A stretch of DNA of 12,353 nucleotides from Eggerthellaceae bacterium (GCA_022792415.1 JAAWAY010000094.1:1-12353); one strand, 5' to 3'; shown: positions 1,540 through 12,353, counted from the stretch's first letter. The notes: generated by a model not told the origin, from the sequence alone. Program-made: numbers and translations.

Positions 1540-2622
1540 GTGTCGACCAGCAGCCGCCGGTGGCGGTGGGCCTCCGCCCGCGCCCTCGTCTCGTCGCTCA
1601 CGCCGGCCGCCGCGGGCCTGGCGGCCCTCTCGGTGGCGCTCGTCGCGCTAACGGCCGGCGCCTACGGCCTGGCCGTCCCGGCCCTGGCCGGGCAGAGCGC
1701 CCTCGTGCTGGGCCCCGTCACCGCTGCGCCGTTTCCCCACGTGGACCGCGCCGACGGCCTGGCGGCCACGGGTGGCGCGCCGGGCCTGGGCGAGGTCGCC
1801 CCGCGCGACGGGGCCGAGGGCGGCGCCGACGGCGCTGACGGGGCCGACCCCGCCGCGGCCGGCGCCGAGCCCGCCGGGGGAGCCGACTCCGCGGGCGCGC
1901 TGCCGCCCACGCTCGGCACCATCCTGCTCCCCACCGTCAGCGCCGGCGCGTCCGACGCGCAGGCGGTCGCCACGGGCGGCGGCTCGGGAGGCGTGGCATC
2001 CGGCGCGGCCGGGTCGGCTGGCTCGTCTGGCTCGGCGGGGTCGTCGGGGTCCTCGGGCGGCGCCGGCACGGCCGGATCGACGGGCGGATCCTCGGGCGGC
2101 AGCTCGTCATCGGGCGGGTCGTCGTCGGGGCCCGCGGAGGAGCCGCGGGGTGAGGCGGCCATCCAGCAGGCCTACGAGACCGAGCACAACGACGAGGTGA
2201 AGGCCCTGCTCACGCGCTACTACCAGCAGGTGCCCACCTACATGAACCGCGCCATCGAGGCATACAACGCCTTCCCTGCGCAGGCCAAGACGGCCTCGCT
2301 CTCGCAGCGCCAGGCCTACGCCGCGCAGGTGGAGTCCCAGATGTCGCAGGCCATCGGCCCGTGGAACCAGATGACGCTCGACATGCAGGGCAAGCGCTGC
2401 TCCCAGTACTACCGGGACAAGTACGCCGAGATCGACAAGCTCTACAGCGACGTGTACAAGGTGTACGAGGGGCTGCAGGAGGCGTGGGGCGTCAACCTGG
2501 GCTACGCCGACCCCGCCGGCCACGAGGCCGACTACCTCGCGCCCCTCAACGCGCGCCTGAGCGGCGGACGCCCGGCGGCGGTGGTCGACTACGAGCGCCG
2601 CCTGGCAGGGGCGCGCCCGTGA
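1540..2622 (+). CDS. Secreted or membrane-anchored hypothetical protein. It has an N-terminal signal/anchor, an Ala/Gly/Asp and Gly/Ser low-complexity linker, and a C-terminal ~170-aa helical domain of unknown function.
   Basis: GTG start at 1540 preceded by GGGGAAGGAGGGG (SD). Basic N-terminus (RRWRW) then a hydrophobic stretch. GC3-rich codon usage. The TGA stop at 2620-2622 overlaps the ATG of the next gene (TGATG). Confidence 0.75.
   Translation: MSTSSRRWRWASARALVSSLTPAAAGLAALSVALVALTAGAYGLAVPALAGQSALVLGPVTAAPFPHVDRADGLAATGGAPGLGEVAPRDGAEGGADGADGADPAAAGAEPAGGADSAGALPPTLGTILLPTVSAGASDAQAVATGGGSGGVASGAAGSAGSSGSAGSSGSSGGAGTAGSTGGSSGGSSSSGGSSSGPAEEPRGEAAIQQAYETEHNDEVKALLTRYYQQVPTYMNRAIEAYNAFPAQAKTASLSQRQAYAAQVESQMSQAIGPWNQMTLDMQGKRCSQYYRDKYAEIDKLYSDVYKVYEGLQEAWGVNLGYADPAGHEADYLAPLNARLSGGRPAAVVDYERRLAGARP
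1972..2131 (+). repeat. Degenerate tandem nucleotide repeats (ggctcg / tcgggcgg units) encoding the Gly/Ser-rich linker of the 1540-2622 protein.
   Basis: Directly visible repeated ggctcgtctggctcggcggggtcgtcggggtcctcgggcgg... units. Encodes GSAGSSGSAGSSGSSGGAGTAGSTGGSSGGSSSSGGSSSG. Confidence 0.5.
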
Positions 2623-4373
2623 TGGCGGCGATCGGGGAGGGGGCCCTCGCCGCGCCGGGCGCGGGGAGCCTGCGCCTCGTGCGCGTGGAGGGCTTCGAGG
2701 CGCCCGAGGTGCTGGCCCCGGGCGACGAGGACGCCTACCGGCGCCGCTTCTGCTCGCTGCTCATGGACGACGCCCGCTCCCGGCGGGGCGGCCTGGGCCA
2801 GGTGACCTGGGCCGTCAACGCGCGCGGCGAGGCCCTGGCCGTCAAGCGGCTCCTGCCCGCGGAGGGCGCCGCGGCGGGGTCGCGCGGGTGCCAGGAGGCG
2901 CTCGAGCGCGCCTTCGCGGAGGAATACGAGGGGCACCGGCGCGTGTCGGGCCTCAAGGGCTTCCCGCGCCTGTACGGCCGCGGCACGGTGGACGGCGCGC
3001 CCGCGCTCATCATGGAGTGGGTGGAGGGCGAGACGCTCGAGCACGCGGCGCGGGCGCTGGCCGTGGACGGCGAGGGGCGCCTGTCGCCCCTGACGGCGGC
3101 GCGCCTATCCCGTGACCTGTTCGAGCTGCTGGCGCGCATGGACCTGGTGGAGGGCGGGTTCTCGCACCGGGACGTGACGCCGGCCAACGTCATGGTGTGC
3201 ACCACGCTTCAGCCCTTGGCGGCGCAGGTGGAGGAGGGCGTGTTCGACCTGCGGCTGGTCGACTTCGGCTCGGCGGCCGTGGGGGAGCGCCGGGCCACGT
3301 CGCTCACCGAGGCGTGGGGCGCGCCCCGCGGCGCGACGCCCGAGTACGCCCCGCCCGAGATGCTCACCGAGGACGTGGCCGAGGCCGTGGCGGCCCGCGC
3401 GGGCGCGGCCGTGGACGTGTACGCCGCCGCCGGCGTCGCGCAGCGGCTGCTGACAGGGCGCCCGCCCTTCGACCTGGCCTCCGACGTCCGCTCGCCCTAC
3501 CGCTGCAAGACCGAGGACGTGCCCGCGCCGCTGACCTGCGCGCACGAGGCCGCGACCGACCTGGGGGCGGTGCTGGCGGGCGAGCCCGAGGTGGCCGTGG
3601 CGCTCAGCCACGCCGTCGCCGACGCGGGCGGAGCGCCGGGGCCCGACCGCGCCCGGGAGGCGCTCTGCGCGGTGGACGCGCAGCTGGCGGGCCTGGTGGG
3701 CCCGTGCTTGGCTCCCAAGCCGAAGGACCGCCCCTCCGCCGCGGCGGTGCGCGACGGCCTGACCGCCTTCTGCCGGCAGTACGCCCCCAACCTGGGGCGC
3801 GCCCTGCGCGGCGAGGCGCTCGACCCGGCGGTGCTGGGCGAGGGCGCCACCCGCGTCGCGGACCGCTCGCGCCGTGCCGCCGCCGTGCTGCGGGGCGTCG
3901 CCCGCGCGGCGTGCGGGCTGGTGTGGGCGGCGGTGCTGGCCTCGGCTGCGCTGCTCGCCGACGGCGCGCGCGCCACGGTGGCCACGGGCGCGGGCCCCGA
4001 AGACGTCCTGGTGCCCGGCTGGGCGGTGGCGCTGCTGCTGGCCGCGCCGACGCTGGCGGCGTACGCCGCGCGGGGCCGCAACGGTGACCGTGGATGGGGC
4101 CTCGCCGCGGGGAGCGCCGCCCTGGTCGGGGCGTCGCTTCTGGTCATGGGCGCCGGCGCGGTGGTCGACCTGGCGTCGGGCGAGGTGGCGGCTGCCCTGG
4201 CAGCAGCCCTGGCCGCCTGCGCCGCCGCGGCGTGGTGTCCTATGGCGATCGGCTACGCGCTCTCGCCGCGCCGCCGACGCGCCCGCGCCGGGCGCAGGGC
4301 CGCGCGCGACGGCCTGCCGGCGGGGGAGGACGACGCGCAGGACGGCGCCGAGCCCCTGGGGCTGGCGTCGTAG
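2622..4373 (+). CDS. Hanks-type (PknB-like) Ser/Thr protein kinase-family protein with a C-terminal ~4-helix transmembrane domain. No PASTA or extracellular sensor domain. Atypical catalytic loop HRDVTPAN.
   Basis: ATG at 2622 overlaps the upstream stop (translational coupling); the ORF-track M at 2361 is an in-frame extension across the upstream gene. Kinase subdomains are recognisable: RRGGLGQVTWAV (Gly loop, compare PknB GFGGMSEVH), ALAVKRL (VAIK Lys), EEYE (alphaC Glu), IMEWVEGETL (hinge), HRDVTPANVMV (catalytic loop, with Thr in place of the conserved Lys), DFGSA (DFG), PEYAPPEM (APE), DVYAAAGV...LTGRPPF. The C-terminal third is strongly hydrophobic (multiple predicted TM helices). Confidence 0.8.
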   Translation: MAAIGEGALAAPGAGSLRLVRVEGFEAPEVLAPGDEDAYRRRFCSLLMDDARSRRGGLGQVTWAVNARGEALAVKRLLPAEGAAAGSRGCQEALERAFAEEYEGHRRVSGLKGFPRLYGRGTVDGAPALIMEWVEGETLEHAARALAVDGEGRLSPLTAARLSRDLFELLARMDLVEGGFSHRDVTPANVMVCTTLQPLAAQVEEGVFDLRLVDFGSAAVGERRATSLTEAWGAPRGATPEYAPPEMLTEDVAEAVAARAGAAVDVYAAAGVAQRLLTGRPPFDLASDVRSPYRCKTEDVPAPLTCAHEAATDLGAVLAGEPEVAVALSHAVADAGGAPGPDRAREALCAVDAQLAGLVGPCLAPKPKDRPSAAAVRDGLTAFCRQYAPNLGRALRGEALDPAVLGEGATRVADRSRRAAAVLRGVARAACGLVWAAVLASAALLADGARATVATGAGPEDVLVPGWAVALLLAAPTLAAYAARGRNGDRGWGLAAGSAALVGASLLVMGAGAVVDLASGEVAAALAAALAACAAAAWCPMAIGYALSPRRRRARAGRRAARDGLPAGEDDAQDGAEPLGLAS

Positions 4374-4467
4374 GGCGGGATGCGGACGATTATCGAATCA
4401 AAGCCTTGACCAGGCATTTGCGGCGATTAGCAAGCTATTCGCCGCATGATATGCGGTGAATAAGAAA

Positions 4468-4499
4468 GGGGGCGCGGCCCGAGATCGGGCCGCGCCCCC
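4468..4499 (-). terminator. Intrinsic terminator. A perfect 13-bp GC stem (GGGGGCGCGGCCC / GGGCCGCGCCCCC) with a 6-nt loop, followed on the minus strand by a U-rich tract (CUUUCUUAUU). Possibly bidirectional.
   Basis: Perfect inverted repeat seen directly. The T-run is only on the minus-strand 3' side (plus 4456-4467 = ...ataagaaa). It would end minus-strand transcripts coming from the island operon or gene remnant. It may also stop the plus-strand kinase operon. Confidence 0.6.
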
Positions 4500-4526
4500 T
4501 CTGCGCGTCGGGTACGCGGGCTCCCG

Positions 4527-4668
4527 CTAGGCGCGGGGGACGACCAGGCGCGTCCGGTTCCAGACGCCCTCGTCGTTCACGTAGTAGCGTCCGATCCACT
4601 TGTCGGTGGCCATGGCGCCCGAGTCCTCGAAGTATTACCAGTGGTCACCGGTGCGCAGTTGGGCGGAA
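4527..4668 (-). pseudogene. 3'-terminal remnant of a cell-wall-binding-repeat (CW_binding_1 / choline-binding-type) protein gene. It has an in-frame TAA at 4635-4637, and its 5' part is replaced by low-GC DNA.
   Basis: Minus-strand translation ...ISAQLRTGDHW*YFEDSGAMATDKWIGRYYVNDEGVWNRTRLVVPRA* ends at TAG (4527-4529). Two tandem units match the G-x-M-A-T-G/D-W...YY...G-x-W repeat logic of clostridial/streptococcal cell-wall-binding repeats. GC-rich, host-like. The ORF has no start and an internal stop. Confidence 0.5.
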
Positions 4669-4695
4669 ATCTGATTTCAAATCCAAACGCGTTCG

Positions 4696-5196
4696 CTAGA
4701 TGCGAAACAAGGATCGAATAGCAGAGCCTAGATGAAGGACGGAGCTTATTGTATAAAGGTCATCAGCAGTGAGAGTGTTATCGGAATCGCCATCATCTGG
4801 TTTTTCCTCATCCGGTTCGTTTTCGGGCACAATAGCAGGATTTTCGATCGTCTCTGTTGTCCCATCCATATATTGTATTTCCACTTTTTTCAATTGTGCC
4901 GATGCAATTGTTCCGTTATACCAAAGATGCTCAAAATGATACGACTCGTATGCACCGGGCTCAATCGGGCCTACGCCTTGGGCAAGTTTTATTGGGGAGT
5001 TGCTATTTCTTTCACCGACGATGTCACCCACAGAATTGATGGCCTGTAAGGTGAACTTAATATACTTTACTGTTTTGTCGGTATCGTTTTGAAGACGGAT
5101 TCGGACGCCAGCCCCACCAGCGCTATCCACACCGCTAATGAAGCAATCATTGTAATCTTTATATCCAACTCGCACCGACGAAATTATTATTCCCAT
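4696..5196 (-). CDS. Hypothetical small protein (166 aa), predicted beta-rich with an acidic C-terminal segment. Last gene of the low-GC operon.
   Basis: ATG at 5196..5194 with SD GGAGAGG 7 nt upstream. The ORF-track start at 5202 is a TTG two codons earlier. Low-GC codon usage matches the neighbouring island genes. No recognisable motif. Confidence 0.65.
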   Translation of the reverse strand: MGIIISSVRVGYKDYNDCFISGVDSAGGAGVRIRLQNDTDKTVKYIKFTLQAINSVGDIVGERNSNSPIKLAQGVGPIEPGAYESYHFEHLWYNGTIASAQLKKVEIQYMDGTTETIENPAIVPENEPDEEKPDDGDSDNTLTADDLYTISSVLHLGSAIRSLFRI

Positions 5197-5240
5197 TTTC
5201 AATCCTCTCCATCAAGGTTTCTTCAATGCTAGTATTTCGG

Positions 5241-6179
5241 TTATTCTCCACATGCCATCTTGTTTTTCACCTCTCTAATCATGTGCTTTTTGCTTGCTAT
5301 TTCCTCGTCAGTTAGCCGTGGTGTTTCAACGTATGCGCCCCATTTGTTGCGGACGAGATCCATTGAATTTCTTTCAAGCAACTCGCTAATCATGGTTATC
5401 ACCAACTGATAAACCTCAGATTTTGATTCCTGGTGCGTTTCGACGAGATCGGCAACTTTGATTAACACCTTGGTGCAGTTATCCGTTTCTTCTTCTAATT
5501 CCCAGAAGGCTGACCGAGTTTTGCTCATGTCGTAATCGCGCACTATTTCCGAGGCAACGTCTCTCATGGCTGAACAAACGATGGTTGTGGCTTTCCCAAA
5601 CACCTTTTGTTGACTAACGACAACGCCGGCCGAAGCCTCGTATTTCTTTATCGCCGAAGAGAAAGAATCGATGCCAGCGGAAAAGATGTCCGTGAAGTAT
5701 TCGTTTGTGAGCATTGAAACGTTTGCGCAACCCAAGGTCATCAGCCGGATTGCCAGTTCCTCGAGATATGATTCAATTGTTTTCGCCGCTGTTCTTTTTT
5801 CTGATTCGAAAGGTAAAGATTTGAGCGCCTGGATGAAACACGAAATAGACTCTTCAATACGAAGATTTTTCAGTGTCATCAGTTGGCCTATAGCCCGGCC
5901 TTTAAGTACATATACATCAAACCCCTGAGGTTCTTCCTCAATGGCTTTGTTGCAATGCGCTATCGCCAGGCTCCAATCGCTGGCATTGTAAGAGTCTTGA
6001 GCGAGCTCAAGGCGAAGATTTGCAGAATGAGCAAAACCGTCTTTTAGGCTACCCCCCCCCCTGGTGCTATTCTGCTCAAAAGACAGGTCATGCTCGACGC
6101 CGCAGCATTCGCAAACGGCGATGTTTCCCTCGCCCGTTTTTAGCCGACCTCCGCATATGTTGCATACGAGTGTTGCCAT
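5241..6179 (-). CDS. Zinc-ribbon plus TPR-like helical protein (312 aa), hypothetical.
   Basis: N-terminal CNICGG...CECCG (CxxC-x15-CxxC zinc ribbon). A TPR-like unit (SDWSLAIAHCNKAIEEEPQGFDVYVLKGRAIGQL). ATG at 6179..6177, 3 nt after the stop of the upstream gene (TGAGCCATG). Low GC. Confidence 0.7.
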   Translation of the reverse strand: MATLVCNICGGRLKTGEGNIAVCECCGVEHDLSFEQNSTRGGGSLKDGFAHSANLRLELAQDSYNASDWSLAIAHCNKAIEEEPQGFDVYVLKGRAIGQLMTLKNLRIEESISCFIQALKSLPFESEKRTAAKTIESYLEELAIRLMTLGCANVSMLTNEYFTDIFSAGIDSFSSAIKKYEASAGVVVSQQKVFGKATTIVCSAMRDVASEIVRDYDMSKTRSAFWELEEETDNCTKVLIKVADLVETHQESKSEVYQLVITMISELLERNSMDLVRNKWGAYVETPRLTDEEIASKKHMIREVKNKMACGE

Positions 6180-6182
6180 GGC

Positions 6183-6743
6183 TCACTCACCAGATTCCCG
6201 TTGGAGAGAGGCGCAGCACGTTTCGCGGCGGCATTTCTTGGCGTTGTCGTTGTCAATGGGGATAATGCTGTCAGCGTCGTAATAGTTGTCTCTTACGATG
6301 GCCCCAATCTGGTACACGAGGTCCACGAGATCAGCCGATTCCTCCGCTAGTTTTTGGAATTGAGAATCAACATCATCGTATTGATCCAAAGTTACCAATT
6401 GATGCACGAGCTTATTTCGTTCCTTGCACCACCTTTTCACAGAGCGAAGCGTATCGGGCTTCACGTCCTTGACCAGGGGATACTCTCTTTTGGATAAACG
6501 TATAAGGCACTCGATCTTGGTTGTGATGCCTGTCGGCCTCGCATTTTCTGCTCGCGGCGCTTTCGGGCAGCCCTGCGCTATTTTTGAAATAATGCGATCG
6601 AAGCGGTTTTCGAAGCATGCATAGGCATACCAGCACGTCTCAACGTAAGACCCTCGCTCTATTGCGTTGTTGATGCGCTGAAGAACGTCATCGTGCATTG
6701 CTGCCATTTCAAGTCGCTTTTCATAGGGTTCCAAGGGTTCCAT
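6183..6743 (-). CDS. Hypothetical all-alpha protein (186 aa) with a HEPN-like R-N-x3-H motif (KERNKLVHQ). Candidate HEPN-superfamily RNase or Abi-like effector.
   Basis: ATG 6743..6741 lies 3 nt after the stop of the upstream gene (TAGGCCATG). Rx4H (R109-N-K-L-V-H114, nt 6402-6419) sits in a predicted helical context about 110 aa into the protein, as in HEPN domains. No other family signature recognised. The functional call is inference. Confidence 0.65.
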   Translation of the reverse strand: MEPLEPYEKRLEMAAMHDDVLQRINNAIERGSYVETCWYAYACFENRFDRIISKIAQGCPKAPRAENARPTGITTKIECLIRLSKREYPLVKDVKPDTLRSVKRWCKERNKLVHQLVTLDQYDDVDSQFQKLAEESADLVDLVYQIGAIVRDNYYDADSIIPIDNDNAKKCRRETCCASLQRESGE

Positions 6744-6746
6744 GGC

Positions 6747-7421
6747 CTACTTCTTTCCTGCCTTGATCATGATGTTGCGTTTGTCGAGAAGGCGAGATAT
6801 TGACTGGAGGGTCTCCAGATCAACCCTTCCGCTTTCCTTAACCTGTTCGACATAGGCGTTGATTTGACTCTCTATCTCCGACGTCGACTCGAGGCTCCTC
6901 GAATTGCTGAACCGGGCCGTGTCTATCAACTCGTTCAAGGCTTTCTGCTCTTCGCCTCTTACTTCGAAATCAGCCTCGATGCCGCGTAGGCTCATAAGGA
7001 GGTCGCGGGAGAAGGCCGTGGACCTTTCAGCTGCATTCTCGACTTGGCTGGCGTAGCTCATGCCCTTTTCTGCGCCGATTAACGCGATTGAACTCATGGC
7101 CAGGAGAATGACGCCAGTAACAATCGATATGGTTGTATCTCCGGGTAGCAAGAGGGCGAGCGCTCCACCCACAGCGAGCTGGATAAGCAGGAAGAGCGTG
7201 GGTAGAACAAGTTTCGGGTACGTTTGGAACAGCCCTGAGACGTCGGCTTGCGTTCTGCTGATGCCTGCGAAATAAAGAAGAACTCCTTGCGCCAGGCCAA
7301 ACAAGAGCGCGATCCACGAGGTAGCGGTCTGCGGCGCAAGCAACGAGATAAGGAGCGCATACGCTGCGTAGATGATTGCAAGGATGCCGAGGCAGGCTAC
7401 CCTCATTGTTGGTTTCTTCAT
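6747..7421 (-). CDS. Integral membrane protein (224 aa). About 4 N-terminal TM helices, then a cytoplasmic coiled-coil/helical domain. Possibly a YdjH-like partner of the SPFH protein.
   Basis: ATG 7421..7419 preceded by AAGGAGGGG (SD). Starts 3 nt after the stop of the SPFH gene (TAGGCTATG). Long hydrophobic segments (ILAIIYAAYALLISLLA, WIALLFGLAQGVLLYFAG, LVLPTLFLLIQLAVGGALALLL, IVTGVILLAMSSIALIGA) followed by a charged heptad-like C-terminus. Confidence 0.75.
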   Translation of the reverse strand: MKKPTMRVACLGILAIIYAAYALLISLLAPQTATSWIALLFGLAQGVLLYFAGISRTQADVSGLFQTYPKLVLPTLFLLIQLAVGGALALLLPGDTTISIVTGVILLAMSSIALIGAEKGMSYASQVENAAERSTAFSRDLLMSLRGIEADFEVRGEEQKALNELIDTARFSNSRSLESTSEIESQINAYVEQVKESGRVDLETLQSISRLLDKRNIMIKAGKK

Positions 7422-7424
7422 AGC

Positions 7425-8561
7425 CTATCCCCTCCTTGTGCCACACTCGGGGCAGAATTTCTCCGTTGAGCCGAAGGGCCTGCCGCACTCCGGGCAGAAT
7501 TTTGCGTTTTGCTGACCTGTATCTGCTGGTTGCCCGTTGCCGTCGACAACGGAGACGGAAGGTGGGTCGACCAAGGGGTCGGCTGTCCCGATTGAGCTCG
7601 CCATCGCACCGCTTACCAGGTTCCCCACTGGGCCGCCGACGCCACTCACCATTCCGAGCCCGATTCCCATGTTTGCGAACTCGCCAACGCCCTCATTGGC
7701 AGCCACCTTTTCGGCAACATCGAAACCGCGCTCCTGCTGATAGGTGTAGCCCTCGATGCGACGCTTGTCGGCGGTGGCGCCAGCCTCGATCACCGTGCGC
7801 TTGGCCTCTGTCTCCTGATTTATGATGCCGACTTGCTGCTCGATCTGCGCCTCGCGTACATCGGCGTACTGGCGGAAATACAGCTCGCGGAACTTCTCGT
7901 AGATAGGATCTCCCTCGGGTCTCATGACCGTCGTCACGAGAAACTGCGTGAGCTCAAGGCCGTATTCCTCGAAGTCGGATGCTAGCCGACCTTTAACGTC
8001 GTCGGAAAACTCCTCCAAGTGCGCGTCAAGCTCGAAAATATTAAGCGCTTTATTCTGTACAGCCTGTACAAGAGCGGTTTTTACACGTGTCTGCAAGAAA
8101 GCCTTGAAATAGCTAATGAGATTGTCTTGTGACAGCACCGCCTCTGTTCCGACAATCTTTACAAGTAGTTTTTTAGCTTCGCGTACGGCGAGCGCCATTT
8201 CGCCCGAGGCGCCAATCGACAGGGGAAACCCGAACTCGGGCTCCATGTACTGTACTTTCGAGTTGGTCCCCCAGGGGATGCCCATCTGCTCGGTAAGGTT
8301 TACAAAGTAAACCTCGGCATGAAAGGGGGATATGCCGTTTGACGGCAGGCTTACAACCTTGTTGATGAGTGGGAGGTTCTGGGTCTCCAGCGTATGGCGC
8401 CCAGGGCCAAATAGATCGAGTGCTTGACCGTTGAGGAAAAACATTGCCTCCTGCGACTCGTGGACAATGAGTTGCGAGGCGGTATTGAAATCCTCCGCGG
8501 GATGTTTCCAGATGAAGGTGCGGTTGTCGCCCTCATACTTAATGACGTCGATAATTCCCAT
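7425..8561 (-). CDS. SPFH/Band-7 (flotillin-like) protein of the YdjI / Band_7_1 type with a C-terminal double CxxC zinc ribbon (378 aa).
   Basis: Recalled similarity to B. subtilis YdjI: ...AEVYFVNLTEQMGIPWGTNSKV versus AEVLFVNTKEFTVRWGTKQ; a Gly/Met-rich low-complexity segment; C-terminal FCPECG...FCPECG versus YdjI NFCPNCG...NFCPNCG. Start taken at ATG 8561..8559 (MGIIDVIKYEG...) with SD GGAGGGG 9 nt upstream. The ORF-track extension to 8762 has no SD, is Cys-rich junk, and covers the predicted promoter. Confidence 0.85.
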   Translation of the reverse strand: MGIIDVIKYEGDNRTFIWKHPAEDFNTASQLIVHESQEAMFFLNGQALDLFGPGRHTLETQNLPLINKVVSLPSNGISPFHAEVYFVNLTEQMGIPWGTNSKVQYMEPEFGFPLSIGASGEMALAVREAKKLLVKIVGTEAVLSQDNLISYFKAFLQTRVKTALVQAVQNKALNIFELDAHLEEFSDDVKGRLASDFEEYGLELTQFLVTTVMRPEGDPIYEKFRELYFRQYADVREAQIEQQVGIINQETEAKRTVIEAGATADKRRIEGYTYQQERGFDVAEKVAANEGVGEFANMGIGLGMVSGVGGPVGNLVSGAMASSIGTADPLVDPPSVSVVDGNGQPADTGQQNAKFCPECGRPFGSTEKFCPECGTRRG

Positions 8562-8658
8562 TCCAGCATGCCCCTCCATACAAGACAGACAGTCCAGAGC
8601 CAAGAAGCGACCTCCTGTCCTCGAGAAGGGAAAGAGGCTGCAATCCGTTCCACTGGCT

Positions 8659-8687
8659 TTGAATGATATGTGGGGTGAGAGGTAACT
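8659..8687 (+). promoter_or_regulatory. Candidate plus-strand promoter for the FHA-A gene. TTGAAT-17-GTAACT immediately abuts the palindromic operator.
   Basis: Hexamers seen directly. The -10 is weak. Position relative to the palindrome (8687-8700) is consistent with repressor control. Confidence 0.3.
8663..8668 (-). promoter_or_regulatory. Candidate -10 (TATCAT) of the minus-strand island operon promoter. The palindrome lies in its -35 region.
   Basis: Minus strand reads TTGTTGCGCAACAAGTTACCTCTCACCCCACATATCATTC. TATCAT matches TATAAT at 5 of 6. This gives a roughly 95-nt leader to ATG 8561. Confidence 0.3.
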
Positions 8688-8700
8688 TGTTGCGCAACAA
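8687..8700. promoter_or_regulatory. Perfect 14-bp palindrome TTGTTGCGCAACAA in the divergent intergenic region (operator-like). The core TGTTGCGCAACA recurs at 9881-9892.
   Basis: Exact dyad symmetry seen directly. An identical 12-bp core recurs 1.2 kb away. It sits between the divergent candidate promoters. Confidence 0.55.
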
Positions 8701-8869
8701 AGTCGAGCGATCAGGGGTGTTTGAGCGGAGGGTCGGCTTCGCCTCGCGCAAACGGCAACCAATCTCGTCTATGCTATGCTCATCAGCGAAAACAACGGGG
8801 CAGCAGCTTGCTCTCGCATCGACACACCCGGCGCGGGCGCCGCGCTCAGGGCAAGAAGGAGGCCGCCGG

Positions 8870-9838
8870 ATGGCAGCGACCGATACCACCCCGGGCATGG
8901 TGCTCTTCTCAACCCTCAAGCGCGACGCGTCCCTCAGCTACAAGGACACGGCCTCGCTCGTGCTGTCGGGCCGGCCCCTGCCGGACGGTCGCAGCCCGCT
9001 CAGCCGCATCGATGACCGCACGTGGCTGTCGCGCTACGTGGTGAACGCGCCGGCCGGCACCGCCCAGCCCCACTTCTTCAACGATTTCTCGCTGTCGGCC
9101 CTGCGCATCACGGCGCGCCTGAAGTCGAAGCGCGGCCGTGGGATGTCGGGTGAGGACGTGCTGGCGCTCGTGACGGGCGACGCGGGCCGCGCCATGGAGG
9201 ACGCGCTGGCCGCGTGCCACCAGGACGTCGGACCCTACCGTAACCAGATGGCGCGCGTGATGGGCGACGCGGGGCTCACGGCCGACGAGCGGGCCGAGGC
9301 TGCCATGGTGCTGTTCGTGGCGGCCGGCTGCACGGCCGACGTGCGCCGCGCGGTGGAGGCGACGTCCGACTTCATGCGCAGCGCGCACGGCGGCGGCCTG
9401 TCGACGCCGGCGTTCGCGCTCATGCCGCGCGAGGGGACGCCCCGGCGCGGCGAGGCGCCCGCTCCGTCACTGGGCCTGCTGCGCGTGGTGGACGGCTATG
9501 TGTGCGGGGCGCCCCACTGGGTGGCGCCCGATGGCGAGGGCGCGGAGATTGGCGCGCTCTCCTTCGCCGACGGGGCGGTGACCGACGTGGGCGAGGACGT
9601 GTCGGGGCGCCACGCGCGCCTGTGGAACGAGGACGGTGCGTGGCTGGTGGAGGGCCTGGGGTCCACCAACGGCACGGTGCTCGTGTCCGCCGCGGACGGG
9701 TCACGGGTGGTGGTAGAGCCGCCGGCGCGCGAGCGGGCCGGCTTCGAGCCGGCGCCCGTGGAGGTGCGCCCGGGCGACCAGCTGCTGCTGGGCGGCACCA
9801 CCGCGTTCCTGGTGCTGGAAGGATCACCTGACGCATAG
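8870..9838 (+). CDS. FHA-domain protein, paralog A (322 aa). An N-terminal ~220-aa domain of unknown function plus a C-terminal forkhead-associated (phosphothreonine-binding) domain. High GC.
   Basis: ATG 8870 with SD AAGAAGGAGG 7 nt upstream; the ORF-track M at 8663 is an upstream in-frame extension. FHA signature VSGRHARLWNEDGAWLVEGLGSTNGTVLV (S-x-x-H, NG-T, then hydrophobic beta strands, ...PGDQLLLGGTTAFLV). About 45% identical, and the same length, as the 10618-11586 product. Confidence 0.85.
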   Translation: MAATDTTPGMVLFSTLKRDASLSYKDTASLVLSGRPLPDGRSPLSRIDDRTWLSRYVVNAPAGTAQPHFFNDFSLSALRITARLKSKRGRGMSGEDVLALVTGDAGRAMEDALAACHQDVGPYRNQMARVMGDAGLTADERAEAAMVLFVAAGCTADVRRAVEATSDFMRSAHGGGLSTPAFALMPREGTPRRGEAPAPSLGLLRVVDGYVCGAPHWVAPDGEGAEIGALSFADGAVTDVGEDVSGRHARLWNEDGAWLVEGLGSTNGTVLVSAADGSRVVVEPPARERAGFEPAPVEVRPGDQLLLGGTTAFLVLEGSPDA

Positions 9839-9880
9839 CCCGTCTTGCGGGGCCTTCTCCATACGTTCATCACCAAATAC

Positions 9881-9892
9881 TGTTGCGCAACA
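9881..9892. promoter_or_regulatory. Second copy of the palindrome TGTTGCGCAACA, 43 nt after the FHA-A stop and 64 nt before the 9956 ATG.
   Basis: Exact 12-bp perfect palindrome identical to the core at 8688-8699. Flanking sequence is not conserved, so it is a discrete site rather than a long duplication. Confidence 0.55.
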
Positions 9893-9910
9893 CCGCCTGC
9901 GCAGGCGGTG
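9891..9910. other. Perfect 20-bp palindrome CACCGCCTGCGCAGGCGGTG (hairpin-capable), overlapping the operator core by 2 nt and followed by AAAAA.
   Basis: Seen directly. Could be a U-tract-less terminator for FHA-A, a second operator, or an RNA structural element. Confidence 0.4.
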
Positions 9911-9955
9911 AAAAACTGGGCTTCCTATCCATGACCGGAAGGAAGCGTCCCAACC

Positions 9956-10621
9956 ATGGTCCAGTGCAACGGCAACCTCATCGTCTTCGCCTGCGAAGAT
10001 GCTCTGATGCACGCCATTCTTCTGGAAATGGGCTCCAACCTTGCGAAAGCCGAGCGTCGACGGTCAAGACACTATGTCAGTCCCGTTTCGGCTATCAGGA
10101 TCGAGGGAACGGAGTCGACGCAGGAGCTGCTGGGCAAGATAGTGCCGCTTTACCTGAAGGACCCTGTCGCTGCCCTTAATCCAAACTCACGCACGAGTGC
10201 CGCCGATGGAGAGCCGGCTCCTCCTGATCTGAAGGTCATAGACGGGTACACGGTGCTATCCCTTGCTTTCGCCACTGACGGAGGCGTGGTTGATTCCGAT
10301 GTGACACAGTTCGTTCGAGCCCTGCCCTCCGAGCAGTGCGGCATTGCAGCTTGCCACTGGTTTGATGGACTTGAGAGACGTCTGCTTATTCAGGGCAACC
10401 TGCGTGACGCCGGCCCGTTTCGCTGCGGCGGTCCAGCAGGTGGAATCGATTCGCTTGAGTTGTTCTTCGGACAGGATATGTTCGCGACCCCCGAGCAGTG
10501 GGAGCGTTTCCTGCACAGTAATAGTTCCGCAGGGGGAGATGTCACCTCGCCGCACGATGACGGGCCGCAGGGCGTGGCTAATCGAAGACTGGCAGCTATG
10601 ATCGGGGATGCTGGACTGTGA
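9956..10621 (+). CDS. Hypothetical cytoplasmic protein (221 aa), translationally coupled to FHA paralog B. Medium GC.
   Basis: ATG 9956 with a GGAAGGAAG purine-rich stretch upstream. The TGA stop (10619-10621) overlaps the GTG start of the next gene (GTGA). No recognisable motif. The C-terminal ...RRLAAMIGDAGL resembles a segment (RNQMARVMGDAGL) of FHA-A. Confidence 0.65.
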   Translation: MVQCNGNLIVFACEDALMHAILLEMGSNLAKAERRRSRHYVSPVSAIRIEGTESTQELLGKIVPLYLKDPVAALNPNSRTSAADGEPAPPDLKVIDGYTVLSLAFATDGGVVDSDVTQFVRALPSEQCGIAACHWFDGLERRLLIQGNLRDAGPFRCGGPAGGIDSLELFFGQDMFATPEQWERFLHSNSSAGGDVTSPHDDGPQGVANRRLAAMIGDAGL

Positions 10622-11586
10622 CACTGCCCGAGGTCTCGCCTCGCGTGGTGCTGTTTGACACGATAAAGCGACTCGGAGGCGTCAGCTATAAGGAAACGGC
10701 GCGAATGCTTCTGTCTTCGCGACCGCTGATGGGAGGGCGCAGTCCCGCAGAGCGCCTTGAGAGCAGTCGCACGTGGCTGACGCGCGAGGTGGTGCATGCC
10801 GAAAACTTTGCAGGGCAGCCCGGTTTGTTCTGCGATTTTGAGGTGGGGGCGATGCGAGTGCTGGCGCGGCTCAAATCGACCAGGGCCGGGGGCCATGGTG
10901 GCGCTGCTTTAGTTCGCGAGCTCTGCGAGGGGCAGGCTGCGGCTGACATGCTGCAGGCCCTAGAGGCAACGGGACGAGGGGGACGCCTGTACCGAAACAT
11001 GCTCACGCGTCTCGTCCGCGCGAACGGCTTGGAGAACGACGAGCGTGCCGAGGTTGCCATGGTGCTGTTTGTGGCGGCGGGCTGCACAGGTGATGCGCGG
11101 ACGGCAGTTGCTGACGCCTTGAGGTTCTCGCACTCCGTTCATGGTGGCCGTATGGAAATGGGAGACGCTGAAGTCGCGGAAGACTCGAACGGGGTTTGTC
11201 TGGTTTCTCACGATGACAGCCCGCCCCTTCTTGGTCTTCTTCGCATGGTCGGTGACTACATTGCAGGCGGTCCCTACTGGGTGTCCCCGGAGCGCGACGG
11301 CGCCACGATCGGCATGCTCGCGCTCGGGTCGGAGGATATCGTCGACGTTGAGCCTGATGTGGCGAATCATCATGCCCGTGTGTGGTTTGACGGGTCATCG
11401 TGGTTCGTCGAGGACCTCAGGTCGGGTTCGGATGTGGCAGTGTTTCGTGATGACAATACATGCCATGAAGTAGCTTTTGGTGGAATCGCTCACTTAAGCC
11501 GTGGGGATGAGATCGTGCTCGGCCGAGGTACGCGATTCCACGTTGTATTCGGTCTTCCTGGTGTTGATCGGCCAGCTCCGCTTTAA
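10618..11586 (+). CDS. FHA-domain protein, paralog B (322 aa). Same architecture as 8870-9838 but in about 56% GC DNA.
   Basis: GTG start overlapping the upstream stop. Collinear gap-free N-terminal alignment with paralog A (VVLFDTIKR...SYKETARMLLSSRPLMGGRSP versus MVLFSTLKR...SYKDTASLVLSGRPLPDGRSP). Shared DERAEVAMVLFVAAGCTGD block. C-terminal FHA-like segment (NHHARVWFDGSSWFVEDLRSGSDVAVF). Confidence 0.85.
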   Translation: MTLPEVSPRVVLFDTIKRLGGVSYKETARMLLSSRPLMGGRSPAERLESSRTWLTREVVHAENFAGQPGLFCDFEVGAMRVLARLKSTRAGGHGGAALVRELCEGQAAADMLQALEATGRGGRLYRNMLTRLVRANGLENDERAEVAMVLFVAAGCTGDARTAVADALRFSHSVHGGRMEMGDAEVAEDSNGVCLVSHDDSPPLLGLLRMVGDYIAGGPYWVSPERDGATIGMLALGSEDIVDVEPDVANHHARVWFDGSSWFVEDLRSGSDVAVFRDDNTCHEVAFGGIAHLSRGDEIVLGRGTRFHVVFGLPGVDRPAPL

Positions 11587-11708
11587 GGGGGAGGCCCACT
11601 TTTTCAGTGATATGTGCTTCAGAAGCCGTCTCAACGGGGGCAGATGGCGGGAATCAGAGTACTTGCGCGTACGTGGGGCCCGGCTTTTGCAATGCCCTCG
11701 CGTGTCTC

Positions 11709-11737
11709 TTTACGCTGGTATTTCCTCTTGCTACAAT
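11709..11737 (+). promoter_or_regulatory. Candidate sigma70-type promoter TTTACG-17-TACAAT on the plus strand. It could drive a short antisense RNA across the 3' end of the small minus-strand ORF.
   Basis: Hexamers and 17-nt spacer seen directly. It lies downstream of the FHA-B stop and about 55 nt upstream of the 11793-11826 hairpin. Speculative. Confidence 0.25.
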
Positions 11738-11792
11738 GTGGTCAGCGGATGCCCGTGTTTGGTGATGCGGGCAACGCCGTTTTGTTTCTTTG

Positions 11793-11826
11793 GTGACCGC
11801 AGGCCTCAGCTAGCGCCTGCGGTCAC
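11793..11826. other. 12-bp-stem hairpin (GTGACCGCAGGC-N10-GCCTGCGGTCAC) overlapping the stop codon of the small minus-strand ORF. U-rich on its plus-strand 5' side; UUU follows the stem on the plus strand.
   Basis: Perfect 12-bp inverted repeat seen directly. Not a canonical terminator in either orientation. Possibly a shared 3' stabiliser or terminator of convergent transcripts. Confidence 0.45.
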
Positions 11827-11935
11827 GCTGCGTTTCGGGGCGCTCACCCCGTGCTATGGACACGGCCTTGACCACCGCCGTCGCCAATCCCACCACCGCA
11901 GTGGCAAGCGCAACAACTTGAACAGCCAATTCCAT
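11810..11935 (-). CDS. Unannotated 41-aa small hydrophobic peptide MELAVQVVALATAVVGLATAVVKAVSIARGERPETQRDRRR. One TM helix plus a charged tail. Type I toxin-like or small membrane protein.
   Basis: ATG 11935..11933 preceded by a perfect SD AGGAGG (plus 11946-11951) at 10-nt spacing. Clean ORF to TAG (11812..11810). Missed by the ORF track, whose cutoff is 60 aa. Candidate promoter upstream (see 12017-12045). Confidence 0.45.
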   Translation of the reverse strand: MELAVQVVALATAVVGLATAVVKAVSIARGERPETQRDRRR

Positions 11936-12016
11936 GGGCAAATCACCTCCTTTCGTAAAAGAAGGCGCTGCCAGCACACGGGGCTTACTCCGCTGACCGC
12001 TTCCGATTTTATCATG

Positions 12017-12045
12017 ATTATAGGAACATACGTTCTATATTTAAA
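12017..12045 (-). promoter_or_regulatory. Minus-strand promoter TTTAAA-17-TATAAT for the small ORF. A GAAC-N4-GTTC (Cheo/LexA-type) box at 12024-12035 sits in the spacer next to the -10.
   Basis: Minus strand reads TTTAAATATAGAACGTATGTTCCTATAATCATG. Perfect -10. GAACGTATGTTC matches the Gram-positive SOS-box consensus GAAC-RNRY-GTTC in both orientations. AT-rich island in otherwise GC-rich DNA. Confidence 0.35.
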
Positions 12046-12282
12046 TATACTCTATTTGATTATAAGCGGGCCGCTCAATGACTACATTTGTTGCCGGAAC
12101 GCATGAAGCATGAAAGCTGAGGATAATCGAACTTCTATCAGCTGAAAAAAACGAAGCAGAGCTTGCTCATCTCTTGGCGGAGAGGGACGGATTGAGGAAT
12201 TCGTTTGCTGGCGGGCGAGAATCGGACTGTCGAAGAGTGGTCCGAGCATAAGATCGACGAGATGTTCAACAGGAAATTAGGG

Positions 12283-12353
12283 ATGTGGAGTGGCGGCTTT
12301 GAGCGGATCTTGGGAAAGGTTGATGTGGCCTTCTCCCTCCCTTGCCCCCCACA
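12283..12353 (+). CDS. Possible 5' end of a gene running off the right edge (MWSGGFERILGKVDVAFSLPCPP...).
   Basis: ATG 12283 with AGGAAA 6 nt upstream. The open frame continues to the window end. Only 23 codons are visible, and an alternative in-frame ATG exists at 12262. Confidence 0.25.
   Translation, partial: MWSGGFERILGKVDVAFSLPCPP

Follow-up and report, generated by a model that had tools for sequence, protein, structure and literature searches.

An SPFH operon with a HEPN gene in a variable slot, from an Eggerthellaceae genome: a candidate modular conflict system

SPFH proteins (stomatin, prohibitin, flotillin, HflK/C and YdjI) are universal membrane scaffolds whose roles in bacteria are debated. 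The subject of this analysis is an operon of five minus-strand open reading frames (orfs), G1 to G5, whose first gene encodes an SPFH protein and whose third encodes a protein of the HEPN type; it lies in the complete 12,353-bp contig JAAWAY010000094.1 of an Eggerthellaceae metagenome-assembled genome (GCA_022792415.1), which is referred to here as the window. Among described systems the closest is that of Bacillus subtilis, where YdjI reaches the membrane only with the membrane proteins YdjG and YdjH (PMC8581546); YdjG has two zinc ribbons, an NTF2-like domain and a transmembrane (TM) segment, YdjH has a TPM domain and a coiled coil (PMC11237479), and the operon is a stress system (PMC8581546; bioRxiv 10.64898/2026.02.06.704340). 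Band-7 domains have also been proposed as superstructure-forming scaffolds within vWA-MoxR conflict systems (Kaur et al. 2020, PMC7159879). From the sequence comparisons described below we judge it an even call that G1 to G5 are one form, with five genes, of a widespread but uncharacterised operon found in Coriobacteriia and Clostridia of the gut, in which an SPFH scaffold is coupled to swappable abortive-infection effectors, and the cassette is probably an undescribed, modular anti-phage or conflict system.

G1 matches the Pfam family PF13421 (Band_7_1) over aa 24-216 with 134.3 bits (cutoff 24; E 6e-39), as had been expected when it was first described, from the window alone, as SPFH/YdjI-like with a zinc ribbon. 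Its C-terminus has two CPECG motifs and zinc-ribbon matches at aa 351-376 that are slightly under Pfam cutoffs, and no TM or hydrophobic segment is present. It is therefore like YdjI (SamI) in its Band_7_1 domain, Gly-rich low-complexity segment, C-terminal zinc ribbon and absence of a TM segment (PMC8581546, PMC11237479), and each has as operon partners a multi-pass membrane protein and one with a zinc ribbon. By analogy, the two likely share a logic in which operon partners bring a soluble SPFH protein to the membrane. The resemblance to the PspA-YdjGHI (SamGHI) system ends there. A co-operonic pspA is found in that system, whereas none is seen by Pfam among the orfs of the window or in four related loci (L090, L092, L094 and L100; loci are designated by L numbers). 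G2 and G4 do not show the architectures of YdjG and YdjH, and searches of Pfam and NCBIfam gave neither a TPM domain nor any other fitting match; the SPFH gene comes first, so that the order of genes is reversed; and an effector slot with HEPN, TIR or nuclease-like genes has not been described for YdjGHI. The cassette is thus best regarded as following a YdjI-like principle, yet not as a YdjGHI operon, and the differences in architecture and gene order rule against the original reading of a YdjGHI system with PspA swapped for a HEPN protein.

Some relatives of G1 differ at their termini. In L114 and L103 the C-terminus is a SHOCT domain (Pfam E 1.6e-5) and not a zinc ribbon, and the SPFH proteins of L092 and L107 have additional zinc-ribbon regions as N-terminal fusions. 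The module at the terminus of G1 can therefore be exchanged.

At least 542 relatives of G1 were recovered from GTDB species, each represented by one genome, and genome context was analysed for the best 80 of these, which are the nearest ones and not an unbiased sample. They come from Coriobacteriia (Collinsella, Parvibacter, Olsenella and Eggerthellaceae) and from diverse Clostridia. In about 70 of the 80 loci a G2-like gene and after it a G4-like gene come downstream of G1, as determined by tblastn and clustering of the downstream orfs (clusters c0 and c1), and we regard G1-G2-G4 as a conserved core that, judging from these relatives, is present in hundreds of Coriobacteriia and Clostridia species. 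G1 is the best conserved cassette gene, with 81% identity to its homologue in L010, 77% to that in L090, and 55-81% overall. G2 and G4 are only 25-35% identical (25-33% for G2) even where G1 is 77-81% identical, and such fast evolution relative to G1 appears typical of conflict-exposed partners. Being core in relatives, and syntenic there with pspA-like genes, was named at the outset as a finding that would speak against the first reading; in part it applies, the core being widespread and syntenic in Collinsella and many Clostridia, although no pspA was seen.

The two other core proteins agree with their first descriptions, as a 4-TM plus coiled-coil protein and a zinc-ribbon plus TPR protein. 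In G2 the four hydrophobic segments all fall between aa 5 and 118, and a helical tail of about 100 aa, read as a cytoplasmic coiled coil, comes after them; the protein has no Pfam hit and is likely the membrane anchor for G1. G4 has an N-terminal CxxC...CxxC and weak TPR matches, which are clearer in its homologues; a homology search with G4 recovered G4 alone, and its C-terminus differs among genomes. A run of ten G residues is located at 6052-6061 of the minus strand within G4 (coding TRGGGS), between the zinc ribbon and the TPR part, and is not present in the G4 homologue of L090. It could be a site of slipped-strand phase variation or a weak point of assembly or sequencing, and a 1-nt shift would truncate G4.

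The position between G2 and G4 is occupied by different genes in different genomes, and is occupied by G3 in the window (Table 1). One occupant, in 28 Collinsella species, is a TIR protein of the Cap12/Pycsar type that also matches the PADLOC candidate PDC-S35. Two further families share an RNxIAHG-type motif and together account for 16 loci, with similarity to pEK499_p136 HEPN proteins that is sub-threshold (E 8e-4 to 0.1); the slot gene of L011 is a truncated copy of only 66 aa. The DUF4365 protein of L041 matches a model of restriction endonucleases associated with prokaryotic Argonautes (pAgo). HEPN is thus one of several slot occupants, and the predicted content of the slot is of immune type. 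PDC-S35 itself is not in the window, and it is defined as a single gene, but in Collinsella it is embedded in the SPFH operon.

An effector domain has also become part of a core-type protein. In L103, L106, L107 and L114 the G3 homologue is adjoined (after it, or before it in L107) by a protein of 840-1030 aa with a zinc ribbon, TPRs, a TIR_2 domain (E ~1e-12), and RCC1 repeats or DUF6273; most of these have a TM segment, read by eye from the sequence with no TM predictor. By hhalign, the zinc ribbon-TPR module and the N-terminus of G4 are homologous (probability 97.2%, E 3e-11), so that in these cassettes an immune effector domain is fused to a protein of the core type. The order zinc ribbon-TPR-TIR_2-TM-RCC1/DUF6273 is receptor-like and is an unusual architecture for a TIR protein.

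G3 has an all-alpha, up-down helical-bundle HEPN fold. Residues R109, N110, L112 and H114 (RNxLxH, a motif of the Rx4-6H type) are invariant in 19 homologues, as are six cysteines (C37, C43, C59, C79, C106 and C171) and an N-terminal M16-H17-D18-D19. The HEPN assignment made originally thus stands on fold and on the R109/H114 motif, although G3 matches no Pfam HEPN family; comparison of its sequence with PDB chains gave nothing useful. Because the fold is accompanied by an intact RNxLxH motif, G3 is predicted to be an RNase effector. The cysteines and MHDD suggest a metal or redox site and are not typical of HEPN families.

Like known HEPN immune systems (Csm6/Csx1, HEPN-MNT, AbiV, HepS and RloC/PrrC), G3 has the bundle fold, the Rx4H spacing and an Asn after the Arg, and the predicted output is likewise RNA cleavage leading to growth arrest. 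It differs in being without a CARF, MNT, ABC-ATPase or other known sensor partner (no cassette protein has a nucleotidyltransferase hit), and in its six invariant cysteines and MHDD. Its partners are instead SPFH, TM and zinc ribbon-TPR proteins, an association absent from a survey of HEPN proteins (PMC3710099). G3 represents a previously unclassified Cys-rich HEPN family.

The family is small, with 19 clusters at 90% identity among 5.8 billion proteins, and a profile of the 19 sequences gives 225 hits at E<=1e-3, 15 of them at E<=1e-30, among 1.84 billion representatives. Contexts were obtained by exact look-up and a metagenome scan. A G3 homologue directly follows a G2-like gene in Band_7_1 cassettes of the window and of L090, L092, L103-106, L108, L109, L114 and L116; in L094 a 126-aa gene is at the G2 position, and in L107 the cassette genes are rearranged. 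The metagenomic contig L090 has all five genes, beside a serine resolvase, with identities to the window of 77% (G1), 33% (G2), 55% (G3), 35% (G4) and 39% (G5). L001-L004 have an intact G3 homologue adjoining a G4-like pseudogene, which is a decayed cassette. A sister clade (39-40% identity) is encoded in a different, conserved operon, with the order M78 peptidase / zinc ribbon-TM-Big_2 / G3-like / YukD-ThiF-zinc ribbon-UQ_con+FHA-trypsin-JAB. It was found in L007-L009, L110, L113 and L115; Prok-RING is also present, and an integrase is near in L009. In its Pfam domains it resembles a Bil-like ubiquitination system, and the HEPN component would be unreported for such a system. Bil-type systems (Ubl/E1/E2/JAB) are thus a second immune-type setting for the G3 family, whose gene there directly precedes the YukD-ThiF-UQ_con/FHA-trypsin-JAB set; they differ from the cassette in that none of their genes is in the window, and the assignment is from Pfam domain content only. 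From these contexts the G3 family appears to be mainly one of SPFH cassettes and otherwise of Bil-like ubiquitin-type operons, which hints at a common regulatory logic.

The operon of the window is foreign to its surroundings. Composition and an orf listing agree with five tightly coupled minus-strand genes (4696-8561; NCBI tags HFJ75_05010 to HFJ75_05020 span G5 to G3), and the first four are separated by exactly 3 nt, as had been read earlier: the G1/G2, G2/G3 and G3/G4 junctions are TAGGCTATG, TAGGCCATG and TGAGCCATG. These gaps imply translational coupling among G1 to G4; the gap between G4 and G5 is 44 nt. Mean GC of the island is about 51%, and that of the flanks 0.77 and 0.74, so that the contrast reported originally is correct and its figures (about 43% in about 70% GC DNA) are not. 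Third codon positions have a GC of 0.42-0.67 in the island against 0.90-0.99 in the flanks, and a strand effect is therefore excluded as the cause of what is a true compositional island. The contrast with its flanks points to horizontal acquisition of the five-gene block, in agreement with the first description of a foreign operon. GC falls stepwise along the operon, from 0.557 (G1) through 0.538 (G2), 0.499 (G3) and 0.468 (G4) to 0.443 (G5), which suggests a mosaic history. A chimeric assembly behind the GC jumps was judged unlikely, as the kinase and FHA genes of the two high-GC flanks adjoin in relatives. A repeat search of the window found no att-like sites or flanking direct repeats bounding the island, and no close donor DNA was found in the collections searched, the best match being 77% identity over G1 only.

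We infer the following steps: complex formation, sequestration and release of the effector, its trigger, RNase activity and abortive infection. By analogy with YdjI/SamI, which membrane partners bring to the membrane, G1, G2 and G4 would assemble beneath the membrane into an oligomeric scaffold that reports on its state. This scaffold would keep the effector sequestered or inactive until phage infection disturbs either the membrane or the scaffold itself; the effector would then be released or activated, and G3 would cleave RNA and arrest the infected cell. G5, which is membrane-anchored in relatives, would be an accessory and possibly a sensing component. A Band-7 scaffold in a conflict system, as proposed here for G1, has a parallel in the vWA-MoxR (VMAP) systems; these differ in being NTPase-dependent ternary systems with Band-7 fused in the effector position, and are without the operon of Band_7_1, TM and zinc ribbon-TPR genes (PMC7159879).

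We regard the cassette as a membrane operon of the YdjI-type SPFH kind joined to the effector logic of HEPN and TIR systems, and the chance that it stands for a new family of defence systems is substantial. More tentatively, we propose a new immune family guarding membrane integrity in gut Gram-positives, in which an SPFH cage or ring senses phage perturbation and licenses interchangeable effectors, these being the G3 HEPN RNase, the Cap12-type TIR, the fused TIR_2 and the DUF4365 nuclease. If true, this would be the first defence system on an SPFH scaffold, linking the YdjI/PspA-type 'phage shock' machinery to anti-phage immunity. A conserved SPFH operon with a repeated uptake of classic immune effector domains (HEPN, TIR and PD-(D/E)xK-like) would offer a concrete role for such proteins, in which surveillance of the membrane is coupled to abortive infection, and bacterial immunity would have a new sensor principle. 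Cultivable and abundant human gut species, among them Collinsella aerofaciens and Parvibacter caecicola, have the core, which puts genetics and phage challenge within reach.

Several observations weigh against the coupling of effectors to an SPFH scaffold. In about 25 loci the slot of the core is empty, which indicates that the core can do without an effector and that it may serve a housekeeping role in membrane stress. The Collinsella cassette is syntenic and near-universal, which is odd for a defence system, and the PDC-S35-type TIR is defined as a single-gene candidate. G3 homologues persist without a cassette in L001 (decayed G4), L005 (other context) and L007 (Bil-like), and effectors may therefore act independently. 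Many HEPN proteins are not toxins. The six invariant cysteines and MHDD of G3 are not explained by the proposed mechanism, the contexts are those of the nearest G1 relatives, and the copy in the window may be impaired, its G5 seeming truncated.

The main rival takes the core to have a housekeeping role in membrane stress or membrane organisation, functionally like YdjI/SamI, and the G2-G4 junction to be a permissive hotspot for self-sufficient defence or toxin genes; the G3 HEPN, the PDC-S35 TIR and the DUF4365 gene would then borrow the transcription of the operon and have no link to the scaffold. We consider this possible, though on the unlikely side. The effector-free loci, the synteny across Collinsella, the single-gene status of the TIR occupant and the G3 homologues outside SPFH cassettes speak for it, as does L100, where the HEPN gene is 500 nt past the cassette and not in the slot. 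The G3 family is, however, almost confined to SPFH cassettes or the Bil-like operon and not scattered over defence islands, and the 3-nt gaps imply translational coupling. The fusion of TIR to a G4-type core protein in several cassettes is hard to obtain by passive hitchhiking, and the divergence of G2 and G4 beside a conserved G1 in the same loci is a pattern of conflict-exposed partners. Coupling, TIR fusion, fast G2/G4 evolution and narrow G3 contexts together favour, short of proof, an integration of the slot gene with the core.

A non-conflict role, in which G3 is a non-toxic HEPN protein for RNA processing or a regulatory or structural subunit of a membrane-stress complex and the window holds a transferred stress operon, is doubtful. 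The six invariant cysteines and MHDD of G3 do point to metal or redox sensing, and the B. subtilis SPFH operon is a stress system; on the other side are the invariant, catalytic-type RNxxxH motif of G3, the immune-type nature of the other slot occupants (Cap12/Pycsar-type TIR and nuclease-like DUF4365), the Bil-like operon as the second context of G3, and the mobile elements near several cassettes. An addiction module resembling a toxin-antitoxin pair, with G3 as toxin and G4 or G2 as antidote stabilising a mobile element, is very improbable: resolvases, integrases and relaxases do adjoin several cassettes and the adjacency of G3 and G4 is kept in L001 and L090, but no MNT-type or other known antitoxin is found among the cassette proteins, many genomes keep the core without a toxin, and G4 as the antitoxin is rejected since in L001 an intact G3 stands beside a G4 pseudogene.

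Searches of defence models and of the literature agree with the earlier view that this is not a recognised defence system. No cassette protein has a significant match to a system model of PADLOC-DB v2.0, with only weak hits of G3 to CARF_HEPN models (E 0.005-0.011) and of the G1 zinc ribbon (E 0.054), and a literature search found no paper that connects operons of the SPFH/Band-7 type to anti-phage defence or to effectors of the HEPN or TIR kind. The original prediction of an undescribed stress or defence system is strengthened in that slot content, the TIR_2 fusion and gene contexts support a conflict role; it is weakened in that the cassette is not isolated and its core is widespread.

Several cassettes lie near mobile DNA: a resolvase, integrase or relaxase is close to those of L090, L094, L100, L103, L106 and L114. 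In L100 the order G1-G2-G4-G5 is followed by a pEK499_p136 HEPN gene, and the element that holds them also has genes for a MobA relaxase, RepA and an integrase and one of NLR-like type. The cassette of L010 is part of a viral contig of IMG/VR, where a resolvase gene lies upstream of it and capsid-like genes follow. Sequenced phage genomes yielded two weak G1 relatives only and no G3 relative, and IMG/VR four G1 relatives and no G3 relative; with so few matches, the cassette is therefore not typically phage-borne, save for the prophage-like contig of L010/L096.

Table 1. Coordinates and occurrence of features in the window and in related loci.
Feature	Coordinates or occurrence	Strand	Description
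G1	7425-8561	-	378 aa; ATG at 8561; soluble Band_7_1 SPFH, Gly-rich segment, C-terminal zinc ribbon
G2	6747-7421	-	224 aa; 4 TM + coiled-coil tail
G3	6183-6743	-	186 aa; HEPN fold, RNxLxH, MHDD, six invariant Cys; variable slot
G4	5241-6179	-	312 aa; N-terminal zinc ribbon + TPR + helical domain, without TM
G5	4696-5196	-	166 aa; beta-sandwich, acidic disordered tail
G1-FHA1 divergent intergenic	8562-8869	.	GC climbs back to host level; palindrome at 8688-8699
360-aa orf	1540-2622	+	high GC; no family hit; overlaps annotated kinase start
Ser/Thr kinase gene	2361-4373	+	host gene; left neighbour of the insertion; Pfam Pkinase E 2e-14
Inverted repeat I3	4467-4500		perfect hairpin, 16-nt GC-rich arms; between kinase gene and remnant
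Cell-wall-binding-repeat remnant	~4541-4665	-	W*YFEDSGAMATDKWIGRYYVNDEGVW...; from translation; repeat pattern only; GC 0.60-0.64
FHA1	8870-9838	+	host gene; right neighbour of the insertion; Pfam FHA; GC 0.74
Second low-GC block	9839-12353		GC 0.58; 221-aa protein, FHA2, 201-aa orf
Second TGTTGCGCAACA	9881-9892	.	upstream of 221-aa orf heading U221-FHA2-U201 block
FHA2	10618-11586		paralogue of FHA1
Slot: 219-aa TIR	28 Collinsella species		Pfam CAP12-PCTIR_TIR E 4e-34; PADLOC PDC-S35 E 8e-71
Slot: 202-aa protein	13 Collinsella species		RH[LVI]RN[GA]IAHG motif; sub-threshold pEK499_p136 HEPN, E ~0.1
Slot: 162/168-aa relatives	L010, L011, L076		same RNxIAHG-type motif; pEK499_p136 E 8e-4 to 0.02
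Slot: DUF4365 protein	L041		E 9e-17
Slot: DUF1413 protein	L049		
Slot: empty	~25 loci, mostly Clostridia		
Zinc ribbon-TPR-TIR_2 proteins	L103 6223-8745; L106 6547-9108; L114 6547-9639; L107 3146-5989		
SPFH protein with SHOCT C-terminus	L114 4093-5280; L103 3813-4949		
G3-like, sister clade	L007 2361-2906		
CFI-box sites	L010 10269-11522; L012; L075; L087 11422-12537; L090 4633-5313; P0021/P0022		
FHA gene of Collinsella	L013-L058, ~7049-7981		SPFH gene from 8001

G5, described at the outset as a small beta-rich protein, is indeed a 7-strand beta-sandwich with a disordered acidic tail, and its family comprises six clusters. In relatives the beta-sandwich is followed by CFI-box-CTERM (NF041770, E 1e-21) or by a TM helix, and one relative has a zinc ribbon and a TM helix ahead of it. 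The G5 of the window is alignable over aa 1-122 only and then has an unrelated acidic tail, and no CFI-box remnant was found downstream of it. This pattern of alignment suggests that it is truncated at the left edge of the island and has probably lost a C-terminal CFI-box or TM anchor. CFI-box is likewise the C-terminal part of the G4-like proteins in L010, L012 and L075 and, in L087, of a second paralogue of the G4-like type; the module (GCYVATAVYGSYDCPxVWTLRRYRD...) moves between the C-termini of G4-like and G5-like cassette proteins.

Beyond the left edge is a remnant of a gene with cell-wall-binding repeats, for which a family search gave no hit. The first description had the island replacing the 5' part of a host gene of this type; the remnant is there, and its GC is intermediate, so that it is uncertain whether it belongs to the host or arrived with the island. 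The adjoining hairpin looks like a terminator. A 28-nt palindrome at 4419-4446 was dropped as a possible operator, being unique in the window.

The flanking genes place the island. In L041 and L062, which are related Coriobacteriia, homologues of the kinase and FHA1 genes are immediate neighbours (tblastn), and the island therefore sits within a kinase-FHA pair. In both of these genomes an SPFH cassette is within a few kb of the pair, the orientations varying among the Eggerthellaceae and Coriobacteriaceae relatives, and in about 45 Collinsella species an FHA1 homologue is immediately upstream of, and co-directional with, the SPFH gene. This suggests that an FHA/SPFH link, functional or regional, is conserved in the class, with a possible tie to Ser/Thr phospho-signalling. 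Alignments of kinase homologues start near residue 100 of the 670-aa orf; from these the true kinase start is probably near 2660, and the 360-aa orf that overlaps the annotated start may be a separate gene.

The window has two copies of a 12-nt palindrome, TGTTGCGCAACA (chance expectation 0.01 per window), one 127 nt upstream of the G1 ATG and one ahead of the second low-GC block; the kinase/FHA neighbourhood and the shared palindrome of the first description are both present. The palindrome also lies 91 nt upstream of the G1 homologue of L062. Of 98 G1 homologues this is the only one preceded by it, and the palindrome was rejected as a general operator of SPFH cassettes; it is a plausible candidate for a lineage-specific operator. 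No sigma-70-like promoter was found upstream of G1. The second block may, given the shared palindrome, be co-regulated with the SPFH cassette or have the same origin. Its FHA2 gene is a paralogue of FHA1, with 63 nt that are 86% identical (9283-9345 versus 11037-11099), and both match one Collinsella gene.

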